A DNA stretch of 30,200 nucleotides from a virus. Lineage: Duplodnaviria > Heunggongvirae > Uroviricota > Caudoviricetes. Both the position numbers and the translations under genes were made by a program. Numbering within the stretch: position 1 is the first letter of the stretch; each line of letters starts with the position of its first letter. The notes below the pieces were generated by a model. That model worked only from the letters and a program-made list of their open reading frames with translations. It made no database searches and was not told the origin of the DNA. Positions 4,770 through 28,916 of the stretch are shown here, piece after piece. The stretch lies in the IMG/VR virus record IMGVR_UViG_2778261160_000004, one strand, 5' to 3'.

Positions 4770-4828
4770 AAAAACGGCGGCAGAGCAGTCACGGAGTAAA
4801 ACTGATACCGCCAAACGTCACCAGAAAA
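4770..4828 (-). ncRNA. dicF: DicF small regulatory RNA (ftsZ translation inhibitor)
   Basis: Minus-strand sequence UUUCUGGUGACGUUUGGCGGUAUCAGUUUUACUCCGUGACUGCUCUGCCGCC followed by a U-run. Near-identical to DicF of K-12 as recalled; lies just upstream of dicB as in K-12. Exact 5' and 3' ends approximate. Confidence 0.8.
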
Positions 4829-8617: not shown

Positions 8618-8869
8618 TGAGATTAAAGTTCATTAGTTCAGATATTGATTGGCTCTTTTGTGGAGTAGGGTAGAGTTAGTGTGTTTGTCTGCTTGGTGCC
8701 AGCAGCGGATATGTTTAACAACAGAAAGCATTCAGCATGGTTAGTGGATTTGCAAAGTGGATTAGGATTTGAGAAACTTTGATGAAGTTGTAAAGCTTGT
8801 TTCTATAAAAATAGAAATTTAACTAATAGTTAAACACACCTCCAGCTTCATTGAAAAGGATTATTAGCT

Positions 8870-9769
8870 ATGATTGATCCACTTATTAGAAACTTACAGA
8901 GTGATATTGCACTACTCCAGCTTTATATCGCGCAACGCAAACAGGCAGGCTTTCATGACATGGAAAGAATAATTGAGTCATTGACCATCTTTATGTTTCG
9001 CGCGCTGAAAATGGGTGAACTGGTAAACATGAATCAGATTAAAGTTAATTTTCCCGCCATTGATTTAGCTGATAATAAAAACATGATAGCAGTTCAAGTT
9101 ACTACGAATGCAAGTCCAGCAAAAATTAAAAAAACTATCGAATCTTTTGAGAAAACAAATGAAATAGGAGAGAGTCTGAAAGATAAATACTCTACTTTAT
9201 ATATTTTTGGTTTTTGTAAAGCCTCAAGATATCTAACTCCAAGTTATTGTAAAATAATCGACCCCAGCTATTTCGTGAATGAACTTTGCGATAAAGCAGA
9301 TGAAGATATGGTCCAGGATATGATTGACGCCATTCGACGCCATCATGATTATACATCATTACATCCATGGAGTGATAAAGATTCACTCGAAATTATACTC
9401 AATATTATTAATCGCAATGCAATAAAACATCGGATGAGTTGCGAAGGCAGTCTGTCTGATATGATCGCTGGTTTAAAAGAAATTAATGAAGTAATTACAA
9501 AAGGAACAATTCAACGTAAGCAACGTTCAAAATCGATATCTGACTTCAAAGATCAAAGCATGGTGAAATTTATGAGAGGTGTAATGGATGATTTGTCTGT
9601 TATTCAAGCCATAGTGAACAAATCTAAAGTTAACCAAGGTGATATGGTTTATATAAGCCATGAAGATATGATTAATATTGATAAATTAAAAGCTAAAATA
9701 GCAAGTGATTCATCAGAGATTGCAAGGCTAAATAATATTGATATAACACTAAATGTTGTTGATTTATAA
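8870..9769 (+). CDS. Orphan cargo protein, possible N-terminal SMEK-like sensor domain; candidate defence/abortive-infection protein
   Basis: 299-aa ORF in visibly AT-rich DNA. N-terminus has the pattern …NFPAIDLADNKNMIAVQVTTNASPAKIKKTIESF… that I associate with SMEK-type domains (recollection, not a search). No catalytic motif recognised in the C-terminal half. Confidence 0.65.
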   Translation: MIDPLIRNLQSDIALLQLYIAQRKQAGFHDMERIIESLTIFMFRALKMGELVNMNQIKVNFPAIDLADNKNMIAVQVTTNASPAKIKKTIESFEKTNEIGESLKDKYSTLYIFGFCKASRYLTPSYCKIIDPSYFVNELCDKADEDMVQDMIDAIRRHHDYTSLHPWSDKDSLEIILNIINRNAIKHRMSCEGSLSDMIAGLKEINEVITKGTIQRKQRSKSISDFKDQSMVKFMRGVMDDLSVIQAIVNKSKVNQGDMVYISHEDMINIDKLKAKIASDSSEIARLNNIDITLNVVDL

Positions 9770-10083
9770 TTGTCGATTTAGCAAAACAGAGAATGCTTTG
9801 AAAATTTCACCGAGAAATATTTATTGTGAACCTCCTTATTGTTTATCGACTTTCACTCTCCGCTCATTGCAGTACTGTCGGAGAAGGCTACTATGTACAA
9901 GAAGCAGCTAACATAAGCGAGCATCACTATTGATATTAGGAAGAGTATATAAAAACTTCATGCTGAACCTTACAAAAGTAGGTAAACCGGCAATGGCCTA
10001 AGTGGCAGGGTCATGTTGATCCGGCACTGCCGAGCTAATAATTAACAAGCAAATCACTCTTTCTAATAATTTGTTGAAATAAA

Positions 10084-10743
10084 CTAAATATGTATATGTT
10101 TACCAACAACCACATATGAACTACCTGCTTTGCTCCATGATTTTATTATTTCTAAATTATTATCTGAGCATATTTTACTTACAGTATCCACATCTAATAA
10201 ACCATAATAGAAAGCATTACGAGAGTTTTGGTATATATACCCATGCAAATGTTTAATACCTCTCTCGTACCTCTTGAAATAAGAACTTTTGTATTGATTG
10301 ACAATCAGTGCTTCACCATCACTCTTTAATAATTCTCTAATCGCACTGAGGACTTTGTGAATTGTGGATTCACATGGAATTGCGGAAAGCACGTTTGCGC
10401 AAAGTATGAAATCATAATGATTTGTTATTTTATCTATATTTTCATAAGAAACGATCTTAGCATTCTTATAGTTATTTATCACGTAATCTGGAATCGTGGT
10501 TTGTACACCTCTGATAATTTGCACTCTTTCTAGTTGTCTTCTCGAATCTAAAAATGTCACAGTTTCAAATTTATTTACTAATTGTTCTGAATATCTAAGT
10601 TTTCCACATCCAAAATCAAGGGCATTGCCATTTTTATTAGTGCTTTCAATCTGTTTACAGAGATAGTTAGATGGCATAGTGTGCGGTTTCGCTGCATTTT
10701 CTGAACGTATGTTTATTCCATTTATTTTGTAATTCAAAATCAA
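10084..10743 (-). CDS. Class-I SAM-dependent methyltransferase-fold protein (not a typical DNA methyltransferase)
   Basis: 219 aa. Motif I ALDFGCGKL, acidic end of beta-2 (TVTFLDS), motif DFILCANVL. No DPPY/NPPY or PC-ENV motifs. Six nt downstream of the membrane-protein gene (operon). Confidence 0.7.
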   Translation of the reverse strand: MILNYKINGINIRSENAAKPHTMPSNYLCKQIESTNKNGNALDFGCGKLRYSEQLVNKFETVTFLDSRRQLERVQIIRGVQTTIPDYVINNYKNAKIVSYENIDKITNHYDFILCANVLSAIPCESTIHKVLSAIRELLKSDGEALIVNQYKSSYFKRYERGIKHLHGYIYQNSRNAFYYGLLDVDTVSKICSDNNLEIIKSWSKAGSSYVVVGKHIHI

Positions 10744-10749
10744 CCTCGT

Positions 10750-11457
10750 TTAAAAAATATTGTTATTGTTAAAGAATTCTTTTATTTTGCTATCAGGTAT
10801 TTGTCTTACTTGGCTTTCTGTTCTTGGTTTAACTGATGCTATGAAAATAAGGAAGTCAAATGCGACAAGAGAAATAATCCACAACCAAAGATTAATTAAA
10901 GAGCCAGTAACAGAGAATATATTTGTTAATTTGGCGATACTTATTATTAAAATAGTAACAAATGCGATTACTGTATGTTCAAAGAAAACCCAAAAGTAAT
11001 AAACTTTGTTCCAGAAAAGTTCAACGTAATGTTTGTCTTTTAACTCTTTAACTTCTGGGTAATACAGTTTACTCATTACCTTGTGAGATTCATCAGTAGT
11101 TAATTTTCTCGTAATGCCTGCAATTTTTGCTAATGGTTTAATAATTAAATGACTATCCCACATCTTCCTTATTCCAATAATTTTTGCTACATTATTATGT
11201 AGATCTAAAGCTCCACTAATTACTGACCAAAAAACTGAAGATGCAATTGGTAATATGCCAAAGGTTAATATCCATTTAATAAATTCCTCGTAGTCTTTAA
11301 CGGGGGGGATATACTTGGCATTAATGCCAACCAATGGCATGTAGCCATAAATGACTAATGATAGGTAAAATATAAATGTAGTAATAAAAGTCGCCTTATG
11401 GAGCATAGGCAACATTTCATTATAACTCTTTGGTGGTTCTAACATTTTACTCTCCAA
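10750..11457 (-). CDS. Integral membrane protein, four predicted transmembrane helices with a roughly 65-aa charged loop
   Basis: 235 aa. Hydrophobic segments at about residues 22-45, 59-84, 151-175 and 180-210. Very AT-rich. First gene of a two-gene operon with the methyltransferase-fold gene. Confidence 0.7.
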   Translation of the reverse strand: MESKMLEPPKSYNEMLPMLHKATFITTFIFYLSLVIYGYMPLVGINAKYIPPVKDYEEFIKWILTFGILPIASSVFWSVISGALDLHNNVAKIIGIRKMWDSHLIIKPLAKIAGITRKLTTDESHKVMSKLYYPEVKELKDKHYVELFWNKVYYFWVFFEHTVIAFVTILIISIAKLTNIFSVTGSLINLWLWIISLVAFDFLIFIASVKPRTESQVRQIPDSKIKEFFNNNNIF

Positions 11458-11886
11458 ACATTCAAAAAAAAGCTAATCTTCTATAATAACGAAATTCAGC
11501 TAGCACAATTAAAGATTAATTGCCACCAATTTCTTGATTTTATAATTTTATCTAAATGTTTTTGATTAATCTAGTCCTAAAAGAAACCTACTGCATAAAT
11601 ATTTATGCTGATGACCCACTCCCTGTTCGTTAACACATAGCAACGTTAGTAATGCATCCTAAGTGATCAATATTTTTGCTAGCTTCATCTGCTCGCTCAA
11701 AGGGAACTAAAATGTTGGCTTGCGTGTGACTTGGCATGTTTAAAGAAGTGCTGGTGGTGACTGGTTGCTGTTTTCCATTTCCACAGAACAAAATCATAGA
11801 AACTATACCCAATAGTTGTATTGAATCACTGACGAGACAGCCTCATATTTATCAGGACTGGTGTACGTCCAATACAGGAGGTTGTG

Positions 11887-11976
11887 GTGCTGGTTCTCAA
11901 ATGTGCGCTGGCTATTGCTGCTGTAATGGCAATTTATTGTCTTGCTGTTGTTCTTATGGATCGCCTTTCTGATTGA
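11887..11976 (+). CDS. Candidate 29-aa hydrophobic peptide (type-I-toxin-like small membrane peptide)
   Basis: Consensus AGGAGG at 11876-11881, GTG start 5 nt downstream, product (M)LVLKCALAIAAVMAIYCLAVVLMDRLSD: one hydrophobic helix and a charged tail. Below the ORF-track length cut-off. Unverified. Confidence 0.25.
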   Translation: MLVLKCALAIAAVMAIYCLAVVLMDRLSD

Positions 11977-12187
11977 TTTCATATTGGCGAGGTAACGGTA
12001 GTTAAGTAGAATGCCTGCGGGTGCTTGAGGCTATCTGCCTCGGGCATGAACACCAAAGGCAGATAGAGAAAAGCCCCAGTTAACATTACGCGTCCTGCAA
12101 GACGCTTAACATTAATCTGAGGCCAATTTCATGCTAGACACATGTAGGTTAGCCTCTTACGTGCCGAAAGGCAAGGAGAAGCAGGCT

Positions 12188-12343
12188 ATGAAGCAGCAAA
12201 AGGCGATGTTAATCGCCCTGATCGTCATCTGTTTAACCGTCATAGTGACGGCACTGGTAACGAGGAAAGACCTCTGCGAGGTACGAATCCGAACCGGCCA
12301 GACGGAGGTCGCTGTCTTCACAGCTTACGAACCTGAGGAGTAA
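12188..12343 (+). CDS. hokD: Hok-family membrane toxin HokD
   Basis: 51 aa: MKQQKAMLIALIVICLTVIVTALVTRKDLCEVRIRTGQTEVAVFTAYEPEE, matching HokD (RelF) as recalled. AAGGAG 8 nt upstream. The ORF-track 70-aa call is an in-frame upstream extension. Confidence 0.85.
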   Translation: MKQQKAMLIALIVICLTVIVTALVTRKDLCEVRIRTGQTEVAVFTAYEPEE

Positions 12344-15607: not shown

Positions 15608-15907
15608 AAAAATTCCTTAATACTGATAACTTGGCGCACTATACACACGTTCCTGAAGAAAGCTATAGTTTTTTGATGGGGTTGAAGATGGCTGGATGTC
15701 TAAAATAAACATTGCTTCATATGTTCAACTATGCGTTAATGATTGCGTCGGTTTGAAGAACAGACGATATACGAAGTAGTTTACTAAAGCAGTTCTCATT
15801 TCAGGTGTTATTCACTTATTCCTTCTTTGAGTCTCTCCAATTAAGTACGAAGTCGTTTCTGTTATGCAAACCATTTATGCCGAAAGGCTCAAGTTAAGGA
15901 ATGTAGA

Positions 15908-16123
15908 ATGTCAAATAAAATGACTGGTTTAGTAAAATGGTTTAACGCTGATAAAGGTTTCGGCTTTATTTCTCCTGTTGATGGTAGTAAAGATGTGTTT
16001 GTGCATTTTTCTGCGATTCAGAATGATAATTATCGAACCTTATTTGAAGGTCAAAAGGTTACCTTCTCTATAGAGAGTGGTGCTAAAGGTCCTGCAGCAG
16101 CAAATGTCATCATTACTGATTAA
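15908..16123 (+). CDS. cspB: Cold-shock protein CspB
   Basis: 71 aa: [71 protein letters not shown], with RNP1-like KGFGFI and RNP2-like VFVHF motifs. Long upstream leader (about 15740-15907). Confidence 0.9.
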
Positions 16124-16404
16124 AATTCATCGCTCGTCTGTATACGATAACGAAGAAGGCTGATGCCTGAGTAGAGATACGGACAGAGTAGTGAATATTG
16201 GATCTCTTTAATAAAAAGTAAGGAGGTCCAATACATGAAACAATGGCTAGCATATTTGGCAAAATCTTAATCAGGAAAAGTATGCTAACCATTGTGGTGA
16301 AGTGCAGGTTTGCTGCATGAATAGTTTTACAGCAGAAGCTAACTGCTGGCATGGCAAAACAAAGTGCGTAAGTGGATGACTCCCACAAAAAGCACCACAA
16401 TCTC

Positions 16405-18432: not shown

Positions 18433-18794
18433 GGTAATATTAAATCGGAACATTTACATCGCGGAATGTAAAATTTAAATAAAAAGGACTTTTCCATGAG
18501 CCAAAATTCCTCAAATCTTAAGGGTAAGATAAAAGGTCTTAATCAGAATGACACGTTTTATTAATAAATAAAGCTATTCTTTCATTGCTGTGTTTTTCTT
18601 TACAAAAGTAATCCTTGCTATGGGTGGTTAATCATGCGTTAATGGTGTTCTGGTTTGTTACAAATTTATCTGAAGCAGTCATTGTTATAATTTTATTATT
18701 TGTACCTCTTGAGATTTCCTTGTTGGTTTTTCTCTCTGATATTTTTTTTCGGACCATTCTGCCCAAGGGCTAATTTCTTCAAAAGGTAATAATT

Positions 18795-19007
18795 ATGTCT
18801 AACAAAATGACTGGTTTAGTGAAATGGTTTAACCCTGAAAAAGGTTTTGGTTTCATCACGCCGAAAGATGGCAGCAAAGATGTGTTTGTCCATTTCTCAG
18901 CAATTCAGAGCAACGATTTCAAAACATTAACTGAGAATCAGGAAGTTGAATTTGGTATTGAGAACGGACCTAAAGGTCCTGCCGCTGTTCATGTAGTGGC
19001 GCTTTGA
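18795..19007 (+). CDS. cspI: Cold-shock protein CspI
   Basis: 70 aa: [70 protein letters not shown]. Long upstream leader (about 18620-18794). Confidence 0.9.
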
Positions 19008-19212
19008 GGTAGACAATATTACAAACCATATTCACTTTAGATGCCCGTGTTGTCATGGTTCCCAGTATAGAACATCATCTTTTGATGTTTCTGACATGAA
19101 TCCTTTCGGGGCAAAATGTATCTTTTGTAAATCAATGATGATTACATTTGATAATATTTCACAATACTTAAATGCCAGCCGTCTGTCGTTGGATTTAAAA
19201 AAGTGAAAATGA

Positions 19213-19680: not shown

Positions 19681-19854
19681 ATGAATATTGAAAACTTAAA
19701 AACAAAAGCAGAAGCAGATATTTCTGAATATATAACAAAAAAAATTATTGAACTTAAGAAAAAGACCGGGAAAGAAGTTACCAGTATTCAGTTTACCGCA
19801 CGGGAAAAAATGACGGGTCTTGAAAGCTATGATGTCAAGATTAATTTAATCTGA
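19681..19854 (+). CDS. gnsB: GnsB-like protein
   Basis: 57 aa: MNIENLKTKAEADISEYITKKIIELKKKTGKEVTSIQFTAREKMTGLESYDVKINLI, resembling GnsA/GnsB as recalled. AGAGGA ribosome-binding site. Below the ORF-track length cut-off. Confidence 0.75.
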   Translation: MNIENLKTKAEADISEYITKKIIELKKKTGKEVTSIQFTAREKMTGLESYDVKINLI

Positions 19855-20005
19855 TGTATTCAATAATAAAATTTATCCATAAACCTCGTTTTTACGGGGG
19901 TTTGTTATATTTGAATGGTTCCGAATATCTAAATCACAATTGTTGATGGTTTTTATTAAACCAATGCAGTCCGGCTCAGGAGTGAGAGAAGCCGGACGTT
20001 ATGGT

Positions 20006-20416
20006 TTAGCGTGGTAAGATCTGTGTAGTTTTCTGGATGCTTTCAGTAAATAGTAATGAGTTATCAAAGGCATAGTAATATCTTTGGTGTTCCTGGATAT
20101 TTGTAACCCATCGGAAAACTCCTGCTTTAGCAAGATTTTCCCTGTATTGTTGAAATGTGATTTCTTTTGATTTCAACTTATTATAGGAGGTCTCTATAAG
20201 ATGTTTGTTTCTGGAGAATTTAACATTTACAACCTTTTTGAGTCCTTTTACTAACACTATGTTGTCGTTTTCTAACACAATGTGAATATTATCTGTGGCT
20301 AAATAGTAAATATAAAGTGAGATATTGTGACGTTTTAGCTCAGAATAAAATAATTCACAGTTTAAATCTTTACGCACTTGATCGAATATTTCTTTAAAAA
20401 TGGCAGCCTGAGCCAT
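20006..20416 (-). CDS. ydfO: YdfO-like protein (DUF1398)
   Basis: 136 aa from internal ATG (GGAAGG 9 nt upstream). Position and length match ydfO of K-12 Qin. Confidence 0.65.
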
Positions 20417-20716
20417 TGGTAAACCTTCCATGTGATACGATGGCGCGTAGTTTGCATTATCGTGTTTATTGTTTCAATCTGGTCTGACCTCTTTGTGTTT
20501 TGTTGATGATTTATGTCAAATATTAAGCCTGTTTTTAATGAATAGTGTTGATTGCGTAACAAAATTGAGCCTTGCTGGCATCCAGGAGGGATATGCAACC
20601 GACAGATGTATGTAAGGTCGATGTACTCAAACTTTCATACTTTTCCTCTTTTATGCAGTAAGATTTGAAGTAATATTTTAACCGCTAGATGACGAGCAAA
20701 CGCATGGAGCGACAAA

Positions 20717-20923
20717 ATGAATAAAGAACAATCTGCTGATGAACTCTCGTTGGATCTGATTCGTGTAAAAAATATGCTTAATAGCACCATTTCTATGAGT
20801 TACCCGGATGTTGTAATTGCATGTATAGAACATCAGGTGTCTCTGGAAGCATTCAGGGCAATTGAGGCAGCGTTGGTGAAGCACGATAAGAATTCGAAGG
20901 ATTATTCCCTGGTGGTTGACTGA
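20717..20923 (+). CDS. Hypothetical small protein (ynfO position)
   Basis: 68-aa ORF between ydfO and the cos/Nu1 region. Assigned by synteny only. Confidence 0.45.
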
Positions 20924-21247
20924 GCACCATAACTGCTAATCATTCAAACTATTTCACCTGTGACAGAGTCAATATCGCATTCTGTCACTGTCAGGCTAAT
21001 ACAGAGCTGCAATTCAACTACTGCAATGTCCTCGTAATTAGGTGAATTTACAATATCGTCCTGTTCGGATGCCGGCTGCATTGCTGAAGATGAGGCATTT
21101 ATGGTTCGCATATTTTCCCCTCATGCTCGTCAGTCCTGTGCGTAGGAAGAAACAGGACACTCACACTAATTTGTGTGGGCATGCTGTGATGTCCTTCTGA
21201 ATTATTCCTATGCCATTATGTAAAGCGCTGTATCAGATGCTCGTCAC

Positions 21248-26319: not shown

Positions 26320-26894
26320 TGGCATTCAGAATGAGTGAACAACCACGGACCATAAAAATTTATAATCTGCTGGCCGGAACTAATGAATTTATTGGTGAAG
26401 GTGATGCATATATTCCGCCTCATACAGGTCTGCCAGCAAACAGTACCGATATTGCACCGCCAGATATTCCGGCAGGCTTCGTGGCTGTTTTCAACAGTGA
26501 TGAGGCATCGTGGCATCTTGTTGAAGACCATCGGGGTAAAACAGTTTATGACGTGGCATCAGGGGACGCGTTATTTATTTCTGAACTCGGTCCGTTACCG
26601 GAAAATGTTACCTGGTTATCGCCGGAAGGGGAGTTTCAGAAGTGGAACGGCACAGCCTGGGTGAAGGATACGGAAGCAGAAAAACTGTTCCGGATCCGGG
26701 AGGCGGAAGAAACAAAAAACAACCTGATGCAGGTAGCCAGTGAGCATATTGCGCCGCTTCAGGATGCTGCAGATCTGGAAATTGCAACGGAGGAAGAAAT
26801 CTCGTTGCTGGAAGCATGGAAAAAGTATCGGGTATTGCTGAACCGTGTTGATACGTCAACTGCACAGGATATTGAATGGCCAGCACTGCCGTAG
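26319..26894 (+). CDS. tfaQ: Tail fibre assembly protein
   Basis: 191 aa; start overlaps the stf stop (ATAATGG). Position and size typical of Tfa. Confidence 0.8.
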
Positions 26895-26991
26895 GGTAAA
26901 ACATATAAATTCTATAATTAGATGTATCTTTCCATTTACGGCAAGGAAGGGGGCTTGGAAGACGTAAAGCATCTCACACCGAGATTATTTT

Positions 26992-27582
26992 TTATATGTC
27001 AGGTGTCTGAAGTTTTGCTTTGGCTCTTAAAATGGTTTGCCGCGAGGTTTTGAATTCCCGGGCAATGGCACTTATACTTACACCTGACTTAATTCGTTCG
27101 AATACCACCTGTTTCTGTTCTTCATTTAACACAGGTGGTCGACCAAAACGTTTCCCTGCGCCGCGGGCTCTTACTATCCCGGAATGAGTGCGTTCAAGTA
27201 AAAGGTCTCGTTCAAATTCAGCGACTGCTGAAATTACTTGCATCATCATTTTTCCTGTTGGACTGGTCAGGTCAATGCCCCCCAATGCTAAGCAATGCAC
27301 TCTGATACCTGTTTCGGTCAGTTGTTCCACTGTTTTCCTGATATCCATTGCATTACAACCAAGGCGATCCAGTTTTGTCACAATCAATTGATCACCACAT
27401 TTCAGGCGAGCAAGCAACCGGTTAAAACCAGGACGCTCACTGGTTGCTGCTGAGCCGCTAATGTGTTCTTCGATTATTTGCTGAGGTTTGATTTTAAAAC
27501 CTGCACTTTCGATTTCCCGGCGTTGATTTTCGGTGGTCTGATCCAGCGTTGATATCCGACAGTAAGCAAAAATTCGAGACAT
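26992..27582 (-). CDS. pinQ: Serine DNA invertase (Pin/Gin/Hin family)
   Basis: 196 aa. N-terminal catalytic region [20 protein letters not shown]… with active-site Ser in the R-I-S-T context; C-terminal HTH. Convergent with tfa. Confidence 0.9.
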
Positions 27583-27898
27583 AGTGAGACTCTATACGAA
27601 ATTGGTGTTCATATCATAATGCATCTCAGAAAATAATTTTGATTATTTTTGTGCATATTTGTATGTACACGTTCGAAAATAAACGAATGCGTATGCAACC
27701 CCGTAATTTTGGTGAGACCCAAAATCGATTTTGTGAAAAATGGCTTTAACTCGGTTTGTTTTTCGAGTTCCGGGCGGACTCAAGGAAGAAGAATAGTGTT
27801 GCGTGTTATTTTAACCAGATTTCAAGTTGTTTGGTCGTGGAAAAGTGGAGCAAAATGTTGTTAAAGTGGAAAAATGATAAAAAAGTAAGTTTATTATA

Positions 27899-28132
27899 TT
27901 ACATTTTACCATTTAAATTTTGGTTGTCTTTAAGAACTGATATCGCTGTTTGTAATAATTCTTTGTTATCCAGCCATGATTTTTTCTTTATGTTTCCTTC
28001 AATGTAATCAAGCAATGTTCTGGTATTGATAGGTCTTCCCTGTTTTGCTACTTCCACTACAGCATCCCCTAGGATAATTCTTACTTCAGGAAGCTGCGCA
28101 GGGAACCACTTTAGGGTGTCTTTTGATTTCAT
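27899..28132 (-). CDS. ydfK: YdfK-like protein
   Basis: 77 aa from internal ATG: MKSKDTLKWFPAQLPEVRIILGDAVVEVAKQGRPINTRTLLDYIEGNIKKKSWLDNKELLQTAISVLKDNQNLNGKM, matching YdfK as recalled. Confidence 0.8.
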   Translation of the reverse strand: MKSKDTLKWFPAQLPEVRIILGDAVVEVAKQGRPINTRTLLDYIEGNIKKKSWLDNKELLQTAISVLKDNQNLNGKM

Positions 28133-28916
28133 GAAGATATTCCTTAAAATATTATTGATTTTCATTGCGATATTGTATGTCTGATTCAGGATATGTTGGC
28201 TTATACATCGGTTTTGTCTGGGTTATTGGATATGCCAATCCCTAATTTTATTAGGGCATGACTAAAAATGCTGAATATGATAAGGAGAGAAGTGATTATC
28301 AGTATGCTGTTCATATAGCCTCGAATTAGTAATGTGTTATATATGATATAGTTGACAATTTTTATCTTGGGTGTTCTTAAAGTTCGTAGATAAACATTGT
28401 CGTTTCAGGTATACAGGAATGCTAACAGGTGGCAGCAAAAATCAGGCGGTTTATGGCGCAAGCTGAAGCGGCAACTGCAAACTATCTTATGCAGAGACTC
28501 TACACGGATTGGGTTTAAAAGTATACATAGATAACAGTTTTTATCTGAAGAAGAAAAATATCAAGGTGATATAGCCTATATGCCTTTGATGCGGAGGAAT
28601 GAATGTGATGGGAGTGATGTATCTGAATAGTTGAAAAACCGCAGACACGCCTTATGCAAGAACGTGCTGCGGTTGGCTGGTAAATTTTTCGATAGTGCGA
28701 GTATTGAATGATTTCCAGCCGTTATTGATTTTACGCGTAAATCCATGAAAAACTACTTATCTGTTGGGGAGTCTTTTTGGGGCATATATGGGACAGAAAT
28801 AGGCCCCAGATAGACACTGAGATCGAACTTAGGATGCTTTTTAAAAAATGCAACTATCTGAAAAAACCTAGAAAACGCCAAGGAAACCACAGGATGGGAA
28901 AAAACACCTGTGAATT

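Follow-up and report, generated by a model that had tools for sequence, protein, structure and literature searches.

Several small inner-membrane proteins encoded by phages or prophages, like SieA of P22, Imm of T4 and gp15 of HK97, allow adsorption and stop the productive entry of the phage genome; none of these three is known to be paired with an enzyme. In other systems, such as RexAB of lambda and Kiwa (KwaAB), a four-TM component is co-transcribed with a soluble partner in a prophage or defence island, the action is exerted after adsorption, and both genes are required. A membrane gene followed by a methyltransferase gene is also the order found in tehAB, where TehA is a 10-TM channel of the SLAC1 type. 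Finally, SAM-dependent methyltransferases are components of defence loci such as restriction-modification, BREX and MADS; to our knowledge, no described defence system uses a small-molecule-type methyltransferase of the sort analysed here.

The closest described relative is the ymfE-ymfD pair of the e14 prophage of Escherichia coli K-12. Its membrane protein YmfE (named 'Kunado') has been reported to protect against T5-like phages at a step after adsorption (bioRxiv 10.64898/2026.09.05.749240, September 2026). According to this preprint, the loss of ymfE in a delta-hns strain restores the infectivity of T5-like phages, and the cloned gene protects BW25113 delta-9 while adsorption is unchanged. 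The blocked phages use different receptors, and ymfE on pBR322 is both active and tolerated in a strain without e14. The authors propose exclusion rather than suicide (a blockade of injection is their hypothesis) and describe the lit/ymfE intergenic region of K-12 as bound and silenced by H-NS. A Keio screen of the e14 genes recovered only lit and ymfE, which implies, although the preprint does not say so, that protection from T5-like phages does not need ymfD. YmfE is presented there as a system of one gene, and YmfD goes unmentioned. The functional evidence for YmfE comes from this single preprint, whose clone may or may not include ymfD, and the activity against T5-like phages is that of the K-12 protein only.

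The window (the whole stretch of 30,200 nucleotides that was analysed) contains two minus-strand genes that are homologues of this K-12 pair. They are carried by a Qin-like lambdoid prophage, within an island of 31% GC. We consider, with a probability of roughly 0.6, that they are the allele of the e14 ymfE-ymfD operon belonging to this Qin-like prophage and that the two function together as a mobile unit against phages. The earlier note had described them as a two-gene unit, a candidate for defence or exclusion that it could match to no named system. The unit itself is real: both ORFs are present where they had been placed, and it is conserved at 99-100% in 146 of 5426 complete E. coli genomes. 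A match does exist, namely the e14 pair, and its membrane protein already has a name in the preprint. The features of the locus are the following:

10084..10737, minus strand: gene of a YmfD-family class I SAM-dependent methyltransferase (217 aa, TTG start)
10738..10749, minus strand: intergenic spacer of 12 nt; its GAGG (10744-10747) is the ribosome-binding site of the methyltransferase gene
10750..11445, minus strand: gene of a YmfE/'Kunado'-family inner-membrane protein (231 aa, homologous to K-12 YmfE over its full length)
11446..11700, minus strand: AT-rich upstream region, where the operon promoter is expected

The AT richness noticed earlier is evident in the composition, with 31% GC over 10001-11000 and 35% over 11001-12000, where the upstream region of the membrane gene lies, while the phage backbone has 45-53%. 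The start of the membrane gene is the ATG at 11445 and not the TTG at 11457 given before, since a GGAGAG Shine-Dalgarno sequence (11450-11455) precedes this ATG, M(L/F)EPPK is the N-terminus in all the homologues and the RefSeq length of the gene is 696 nt. For the methyltransferase, the second TTG (10737), which gives 217 aa, is most likely the start. It is located 6 nt after the GAGG, while the TTG at 10743 directly abuts it. Residues 1-20, containing the segment xYxIxGxxIRSENAAKP, are conserved in all the homologues, and the 197-aa RefSeq call found in some genomes is therefore too short; in other RefSeq genomes the gene is called at 654 nt. With the corrected starts the gap between the genes becomes 12 nt instead of 6, and this spacer with its GAGG implies that both genes would be co-transcribed. 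A promoter had been proposed at 11460-11620 and could not be confirmed, as a scan of that region for the sigma-70 consensus gave no minus-strand match and fewer sites than in shuffled sequences. At 31-35% GC the locus is compatible with silencing by H-NS and, by analogy with e14, is probably silenced under laboratory conditions.

The pair resembles its e14 counterpart in the gene order, the abutting genes, the character of AT-rich prophage cargo and the presence nearby of further defence or toxin genes, which are lit in e14 and, in the window, an SMEK-nuclease gene and hokD. It differs in being found in another type of prophage and insertion slot and in 40% (YmfE) and 32% (YmfD) of the residues, and consequently the specificity or target range of the window allele may differ as well.

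The membrane protein aligns with K-12 YmfE at 60% identity over 230 of 231 residues (BLASTP, E 3e-108). The pair of helical hairpins with a charged loop between them, read earlier from its sequence, corresponds to four hydrophobic segments (at about 21-41, 59-79, 152-176 and 187-205) flanking a 65-residue net-positive helical region. The latter, between TM2 and TM3, forms a conserved three-helix domain that is cytoplasmic by the predicted topology. The AF2 model is all-helical (pLDDT 92.4, pTM 0.86) and, together with the segments, gives the multi-pass inner-membrane architecture predicted for the YmfE/'Kunado' family. Hydropathy and charge suggest an N-in/C-in topology; the ends are predicted to be cytoplasmic on account of the charge bias and of the fusions found in relatives (TIR at the N-terminus, methyltransferase at the C-terminus, see below). 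In 36 diverse homologues H83, R93, M124, Y129 and W152 are invariant, and position 156, inside TM3, is always E or D (E156 in the window). No match was obtained against Pfam, PADLOC (up to E 1) or PDB sequences, nor any structural match of the fold to the PDB and BFVD structures, and a search for similarity to pore-formers or SLATT-like proteins was equally negative. The mode of action proposed for YmfE is that of SieA, Imm and gp15, but no sequence or fold similarity to them was detected, and unlike them the YmfE family is not confined to prophages, since members are also found in the defence islands of bacteria from many phyla. Clustering of the family at 50% identity gives 568 clusters. Should the preprint be correct, the membrane protein would be the founding member of a widespread anti-phage family with a fold unlike the solved structures.

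The methyltransferase is 68% identical to K-12 YmfD over its full length (E 5e-112). The class I SAM-binding motifs previously pointed out (ALDFGCGKL and DFILCANVL) are present, and the Pfam profiles Methyltransf_23 (34.9 bits, cut-off 27) and Methyltransf_12 (34.8 bits, cut-off 30) match above their cut-offs. The hallmarks of the class, motif I (D/E-x-G-x-G) and the acidic residue that ends strand 2, are present as LDFGCGK and FLDS and are invariant in 36 diverse homologues, in which the fully conserved positions are D43, G45, C46, G47, K48, R50, D66, S67, Q70, P123, Q150, S154 and G168. With its SAM-binding residues invariant, the enzyme appears to be catalytically intact. Its AF2 model (pLDDT 89.2, pTM 0.88) is related by Foldseek to many class I methyltransferases with a probability of 1.00, the top matches being Trm9, MfnG, NNMT, NodS, DnrK and DhpI (TM-scores 0.55-0.64), and the PDB profile matches are weak (E 0.003-0.007) and indicate no particular substrate. 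It resembles small-molecule methyltransferases and not DNA methyltransferases. The target motifs of the latter are missing, as had been said before: the sequence contains no PP dipeptide (hence no (D/N/S)PP(Y/F/W) motif), PCQ or ENV, and 217 aa leave no room for a target-recognition domain. The enzyme is thus not a DNA methyltransferase of the restriction-modification type, and among the PADLOC methyltransferase models only mad2 of MADS gave a match, a weak one (E 6.7e-05). Although it shares with restriction-modification, BREX and MADS the presence of a SAM-dependent methyltransferase in a defence locus, it has neither these DNA-methyltransferase features nor a nuclease or ATPase partner, and so would not mark self DNA. 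Nicotinamide methylation, considered because of the NNMT-like fold and a TIR fusion, was discarded: TM-scores of ~0.58 are generic and most members of the family have no TIR domain. Earlier literature on ymfD describes a biofilm phenotype.

The association of both genes is what points to a single module. Among loci collected by a search with the methyltransferase alignment, a YmfE-like gene adjoins the methyltransferase gene in 33 of 35 species-level genome loci and in all 26 IMG/VR viral-contig loci, so that the co-occurrence the earlier note had proposed to check is indeed conserved. These loci span Pseudomonadota, Planctomycetota, Bacillota, Chloroflexota, Dormiibacterota and others, and in some lineages the gene order is reversed with the adjacency kept. 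The reading frames of homologous pairs abut or overlap by about 10-20 nt, and the distance matrices of the two proteins are correlated (Mantel r 0.67, a value reached by 0 of 2000 permutations). In Vibrio cholerae the pair lies between consecutive attC repeats and constitutes one integron cassette of 1487 nt. Two other systems of V. cholerae integrons, Toutatis (a 64-aa TutA plus a methyltransferase) and Sucellos (RexAB-like), were checked and are different from the pair. The 50,697 deposited phage genomes that were searched gave no homologue. The two genes do not decay equally: the membrane gene is disrupted beside an intact methyltransferase gene in about six independent cases (including IS5 and ISApl1 insertions in E. 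coli) and the reverse was seen once, an asymmetry based on about seven events.

A 459-aa protein, identical on four independent contigs, contains the membrane and methyltransferase domains in one polypeptide, the methyltransferase being attached at the C-terminus of the membrane protein. Another protein, P0370 (400 aa), is an intact TIR_2-YmfE fusion with a catalytic-type Glu (judged by eye). Both contigs of its cluster-mate P0210 show a frameshift in TM3, and on contigs L009/L010 a methyltransferase gene follows this frameshifted version; the TIR-YmfE architecture is accepted here only on account of the intact P0370. An apparent fusion ORF in two Bradyrhizobium loci turned out to be a decayed membrane gene, with an in-frame stop and a frameshift, that reads through in the methyltransferase frame.

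Complete defence systems are located directly beside the pair in six of 32 diverse loci (a raw count, with no matched random genes for comparison), namely Hachiman (two loci), Lamassu (two loci), Gabija and Olokun, all on the same strand and 67-175 nt away; a seventh locus has an Hhe/PDC-S37-like gene nearby. These loci agree with a location in defence islands, another point the earlier note had wanted examined. Large serine recombinases are found near the pair in six of the 32, and in other E. coli the prophage slot of the window is occupied by AbiH, a KwaB-like gene or other cargo, as in a variable hot spot. Some other loci, for example one in Neptuniibacter, have ordinary genes around the pair. 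Taken with the co-occurrence, the cassette and the fusion, as well as with the experiments on K-12 YmfE described in the preprint, these neighbours and the hot spot favour the defence or exclusion reading put forward from the sequence; its 'envelope-modifying' variant received no direct support. The apparent dispensability of ymfD in the Keio screen weakens the note's other hypothesis, a membrane effector under methyltransferase control, as it weakens any part for the enzyme in the mechanism. The pair was undescribed in Vassallo et al. 2022 and in the other defence-discovery papers examined.

If the window pair is indeed an anti-phage module, its four-TM inner-membrane protein would be, by homology to K-12 YmfE, the part that stops the phage. 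The block would take place at or just after the entry of the genome through the inner membrane, given that in the preprint T5-like phages with different receptors are affected and adsorption is not blocked. The methyltransferase may work on the cytoplasmic side of the membrane protein, since in one lineage it is fused to the C-terminus of the latter, and the methylation of the membrane protein or of a membrane-proximal molecule might tune or restrain the activity rather than kill the phage.

A more specific version of this reading, which we regard as possible and put forward tentatively, is that Kunado does not act alone but forms a two-component system with the methyltransferase, which would be physically coupled to its cytoplasmic side (as the single fusion lineage suggests), methylation contributing to immunity or to its regulation. 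The YmfE domain would then be a modular inner-membrane sensor of genome entry by phages, wired either to a methyltransferase or to a TIR NADase. Methylation could concern the membrane protein itself, lipids or quinones, or some component of the phage where it enters. RexAB and Kiwa offer a parallel, but there is no homology with either, neither has a SAM-dependent methyltransferase, and the partner gene, required in both, appears dispensable for the sole known phenotype of K-12 YmfE according to the preprint.

Abortive infection is a rather unlikely alternative. On entry of a phage the membrane protein, as sensor or effector, would collapse the membrane or, in the TIR variants, trigger the depletion of NAD+, and the methyltransferase would be its antitoxin-like restraint or its sensor. 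For example, constitutive methylation could hold the effector off until the phage depletes SAM or shuts the host off. The TIR_2-YmfE fusion with its catalytic-type Glu and the Abi-type neighbours (lit, Lamassu and Gabija) would fit, the more frequent loss of the membrane gene looks as if its product were costly (and would agree, indirectly, with a pair like the type II toxin-antitoxin ones, of membrane toxin and enzyme antitoxin), and the acidic E156 in TM3 together with the juxtamembrane polar cluster suggests a gated function. Nevertheless, ymfE is tolerated on pBR322 and exclusion is proposed in the preprint, nothing resembling a pore-former or SLATT protein was found, and SAM sensing is pure inference.

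Less probable still is a pair that methylates small molecules, lipids, quinones or metalloids at the membrane, like TehA/TehB, and that mobile elements carry as an accessory trait for reasons other than phages, the anti-T5 effect being a by-product of changes to the envelope. The gene order resembles tehAB, the Pfam TehB profile matches above its cut-off (24.6 vs 20.4 bits), the nearest structures are small-molecule O/N-methyltransferases and Trm9, and the invariant polar cluster of the membrane protein might bind a substrate. The TehB match, however, is confined to profile positions 29-136 of 193, the generic SAM-binding core, and the membrane protein, with four TM segments, is unlike TehA (a TDT/SLAC1 protein) or any Pfam family, so that the pair is not a TehAB pair. 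The distribution is patchy and tied to the prophage hot spot, the integron cassette, recombinases and defence islands, a metabolic role would not easily explain the TIR fusion, and the K-12 phenotype needs ymfE and not ymfD, if the Keio screen of the preprint is so read. Strong homology to a housekeeping or biosynthetic pair would have refuted the earlier note; no such homologous pair was found.

That the genes are mere neighbours, the methyltransferase being unrelated cargo (e.g., an RNA or orphan enzyme downstream), would agree with the absence of ymfD from the hits given in the preprint and with a study in which knocking out ymfD reduced the number of mRNA m6A peaks (three unrelated knockouts did likewise), but is close to refuted by the adjacency across phyla even with reversed order, the overlapping or abutting frames, the shared cassette, the single-polypeptide fusion and the correlated divergence.

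The anti-phage report on K-12 YmfE was already known; the pairing with a methyltransferase, the cassette, the fusions, the TIR lineage and the defence neighbours are new. The methyltransferase is a noteworthy companion in a just-described defence family, of which the window pair is a second E. coli version. Why an intact methyltransferase almost never separates from the membrane protein, and sometimes fuses to it, is a question that goes beyond the preprint, and explaining it could bring to light a step at the membrane, of control or of effector action, that is based on methylation. These data suggest that defence-finding tools, if they annotate 'Kunado' as a single gene, would overlook half of the unit. 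As K-12 carries a version of the pair, tools are at hand (Keio mutants, delta-hns and delta-9 strains, BASEL phages).

Within E. coli the e14 allele is found in 283 genomes and the window allele in 151 of the 5426 complete ones. Three matches were to plasmids, one of them from Citrobacter; another (H48) is actually an excised e14 circle, and the third (H47) is probably one too.

The two minus-strand genes encode homologues of proteins of the cryptic prophage e14 of E. coli K-12. The four-helix membrane protein (10750-11445) is related to YmfE (60% identity, E 3e-108) and the methyltransferase (10084-10737) to YmfD (68% identity, E 5e-112). ymfE and ymfD are the first two genes of e14, abutting each other beside lit. 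Since both proteins have these homologues, the pairing, which the earlier note could not match to a named system, is a known one, present here as a second E. coli allele of ymfE-ymfD in a prophage other than e14. Of 5426 complete genomes, 151 have this allele and 283, for the most part K-12 derivatives, that of e14. The two reading frames, the high AT content, the SAM-binding motifs quoted for the enzyme and the layout of two hairpins with a charged region between them are all real; both start codons are corrected here. For the membrane gene the start codon is the ATG at 11445, downstream of a GGAGAG site (231 aa), and for the methyltransferase gene it is most likely the TTG at 10737, 6 nt past a GAGG (217 aa). 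The 197-aa RefSeq call of some genomes is too short, since residues 1-20 are conserved in every homologue. With these starts the spacer is 12 nt instead of 6; the promoter proposed upstream of the membrane gene could not be located.

Earlier literature on ymfD is confined to a biofilm phenotype and one assay as an mRNA m6A enzyme, in which a ymfD knockout lowered the peak count, but three unrelated knockouts did so too. For ymfE, a preprint dated 11 September 2026 (bioRxiv 10.64898/2026.09.05.749240) reports that BW25113 or MG1655, once hns is deleted, shows an otherwise masked defence against T4-like and T5-like phages, and that e14 genes screened through Keio mutants yielded two hits, lit against T4 and ymfE against T5-like phages. 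Expressed from pBR322 under its own promoter, ymfE protected a prophage-free strain from T5-like phages with differing receptors, and adsorption still took place; the authors, who name the protein Kunado, propose that it serves superinfection exclusion by keeping DNA from being injected. Neither "ymfD" nor "methyltransferase" appears in the text; it is implied there, and not stated, that a ymfD deletion was screened and was negative. The methyltransferase is thus apparently dispensable for the one phenotype measured.

In evolution, the methyltransferase is an integral partner of the membrane protein. The methyltransferase alignment served to search species-level genomes and IMG/VR, and every open reading frame was then scored against profiles for the two families. 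A YmfE-like gene lay next to the methyltransferase in 33 of the 35 informative genome loci (the exceptions being a methyltransferase gene near a contig end and a methyltransferase fragment) and in all 26 viral-contig loci. The pair occurs in gamma-, alpha- and delta-proteobacteria, Planctomycetota, Bacillota, Dormiibacterota and Verrucomicrobia; a Chloroflexota genome was found separately. The frames usually abut or overlap by ~10-20 nt, and adjacency is kept in four loci with reversed order. The two proteins diverge in a correlated way (Mantel r 0.67; 0 of 2000 permutations as high). In V. cholerae the pair is bounded by consecutive attC (VCR) repeats, with 1487 nt from one to the next, and makes up one integron cassette of two genes where most cassettes have one gene. 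In the adjoining cassette a 29-nt unit, GTAACGTGTTTATGTTACTTTTTCTAGTA, occurs seven times in tandem (locus L006, 8191-8451). A protein of 459 aa, P0300, identical on four contigs from four samples, joins the whole membrane domain, N-terminal, to the whole methyltransferase, and a GIY-YIG nuclease gene flanks it on three of them. A second putative fusion, from Bradyrhizobium, was rejected as a pseudogene.

The enzyme model is confident (pLDDT 89). Its structural matches are class I enzymes whose substrates are small molecules or a tRNA base (Trm9, MfnG, NNMT, NodS, DnrK, DhpI); the TM-scores, 0.55-0.64, do not identify its own substrate. As had been noted, DNA-methyltransferase motifs are absent; nor is there room for a target-recognition domain. 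The SAM-pocket residues and the family-specific K48, R50, Q70, Q150 and S154 are invariant among 36 diverse homologues; selection therefore acts to keep the enzyme active. As a homologue of YmfE, the membrane protein is most likely an inner-membrane barrier that would act after adsorption. Because the methyltransferase is integral in evolution yet apparently unneeded for the measured phenotype, the best reading is that it would tune or restrain the membrane protein by acting on its cytoplasmic face or on a nearby molecule.

Two observations favour a different arrangement, abortive infection, in which the membrane protein would be the sensor or effector and the methyltransferase a restraint or a sensor. 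One lineage carries an N-terminal TIR_2 domain on the membrane protein (Pfam E 3e-26; intact in the 400-aa P0370); the first-found copy is frameshifted, and on its contigs a methyltransferase follows that is 33% identical to that of the window. The other is an asymmetry of decay. About six times, independently, the membrane gene is broken beside an intact methyltransferase: through insertion of IS5 and of ISApl1 in E. coli genomes, through a third interruption, of ~1.4 kb, in an IMG/VR contig, through frameshifts in an excised e14 circle and in the TIR variant, and in the Bradyrhizobium pseudogene. The reverse was seen once. Though the numbers are small, this suggests that the membrane protein is the costly component. 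Abortive infection is a less probable reading than the first. A purely metabolic, TehAB-like pair is unlikely, and so is mere neighbourhood of the two genes.

A PADLOC scan of 320 neighbouring open reading frames at 32 diverse loci placed complete systems directly beside the pair in six (Hachiman and Lamassu in two each, Gabija, Olokun), a raw count without matched random control. They lie on the same strand as the pair, 67-175 nt away. A seventh locus has a giant Hhe/PDC-S37-like gene nearby; large serine recombinases occur near the pair in 6 of the 32, and a DUF3987 gene adjoins it in another. In a 246-aa subclass of the membrane protein, the genes lying upstream encode a small ABC_tran/AAA_21 ATPase and a 511-aa protein without a family; these and the GIY-YIG gene may be further linked components in those lineages (metagenome contigs L011, 3802-5876, and L078/L080). 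The defence reading of the earlier note was right in substance; as to its candidate undescribed module, the pair is instead a new member of the recently described Kunado family. New here are the methyltransferase as a near-obligate partner, the variants with a fusion or a TIR domain, and the broad distribution in defence islands; taken together, they raise a pointed question that is easy to test.

The window is a Qin-like lambdoid prophage, in the order integrase (20-1315), dicB/DicF, immunity and replication region, hokD/sok, rem, ydfU, Q, lysis and head. The copy in strain H8, 100% identical over the query, adjoins rspB/ynfA; a closely related prophage in strain 55989 sits at ompW.

Additional features of the window (RNA features by Rfam, above gathering score)
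4775-4826, minus: DicF sRNA
8870-9769, plus: SMEK-domain gene (299 aa; Pfam SMEK_N, E 1.4e-22)
12019-12343, plus: hokD/sok type I toxin-antitoxin (sok 12019-12193, 118 bits; Hok-type frame ending at 12343)
15747-16139, plus: cspA-type thermoregulator leader of a prophage cold-shock gene
18649-19034, plus: cspA-type thermoregulator leader of a prophage cold-shock gene
26662-26860, plus: IS009 sRNA

The pair shares an island of 31-35% GC, between a DUF977 replication-region gene and hokD, with the SMEK-domain gene, convergent with the methyltransferase gene. The N-terminal half of the SMEK protein matches the PADLOC model Aga_REase-PNTD1-PNTD2 (E 9e-21), and a 2023 NAR paper counts SMEK among the nuclease domains tied to short prokaryotic Argonaute systems. 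Since it stands alone in the window, it may be a defence candidate of its own, with a single gene; in other genomes it shows no linkage to the pair. hokD/sok lies directly upstream of the ymfE-like gene in divergent orientation, mirroring lit/ymfE of e14, whose divergent promoters are co-silenced by H-NS according to the preprint. Cargo in the DUF977-hokD slot (about 8620-12020) varies among related E. coli prophages, other genomes having AbiH, a KwaB-like gene, a DUF4209 protein, DUF4406, an alpha/beta hydrolase, QueH with an ATP-binding protein (ATPase) and DUF1627, sce7726 with a "beta family" protein, or DUF7167 with a different class I methyltransferase; several unnamed slot genes are possible defence candidates to mine. 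ARAGORN found no tRNA genes in the window; the 55989 prophage has three. The latter (L001) also carries a Ser/Thr kinase and PP2C phosphatase after Q and sce7726 with a "beta family" protein near the lysis genes (19713-21217 and 26932-28561), which look like further accessory or defence cargo. The H8 annotation, which extends over the window in full (identity about 99-100% in the parts compared), has other genes at those positions.
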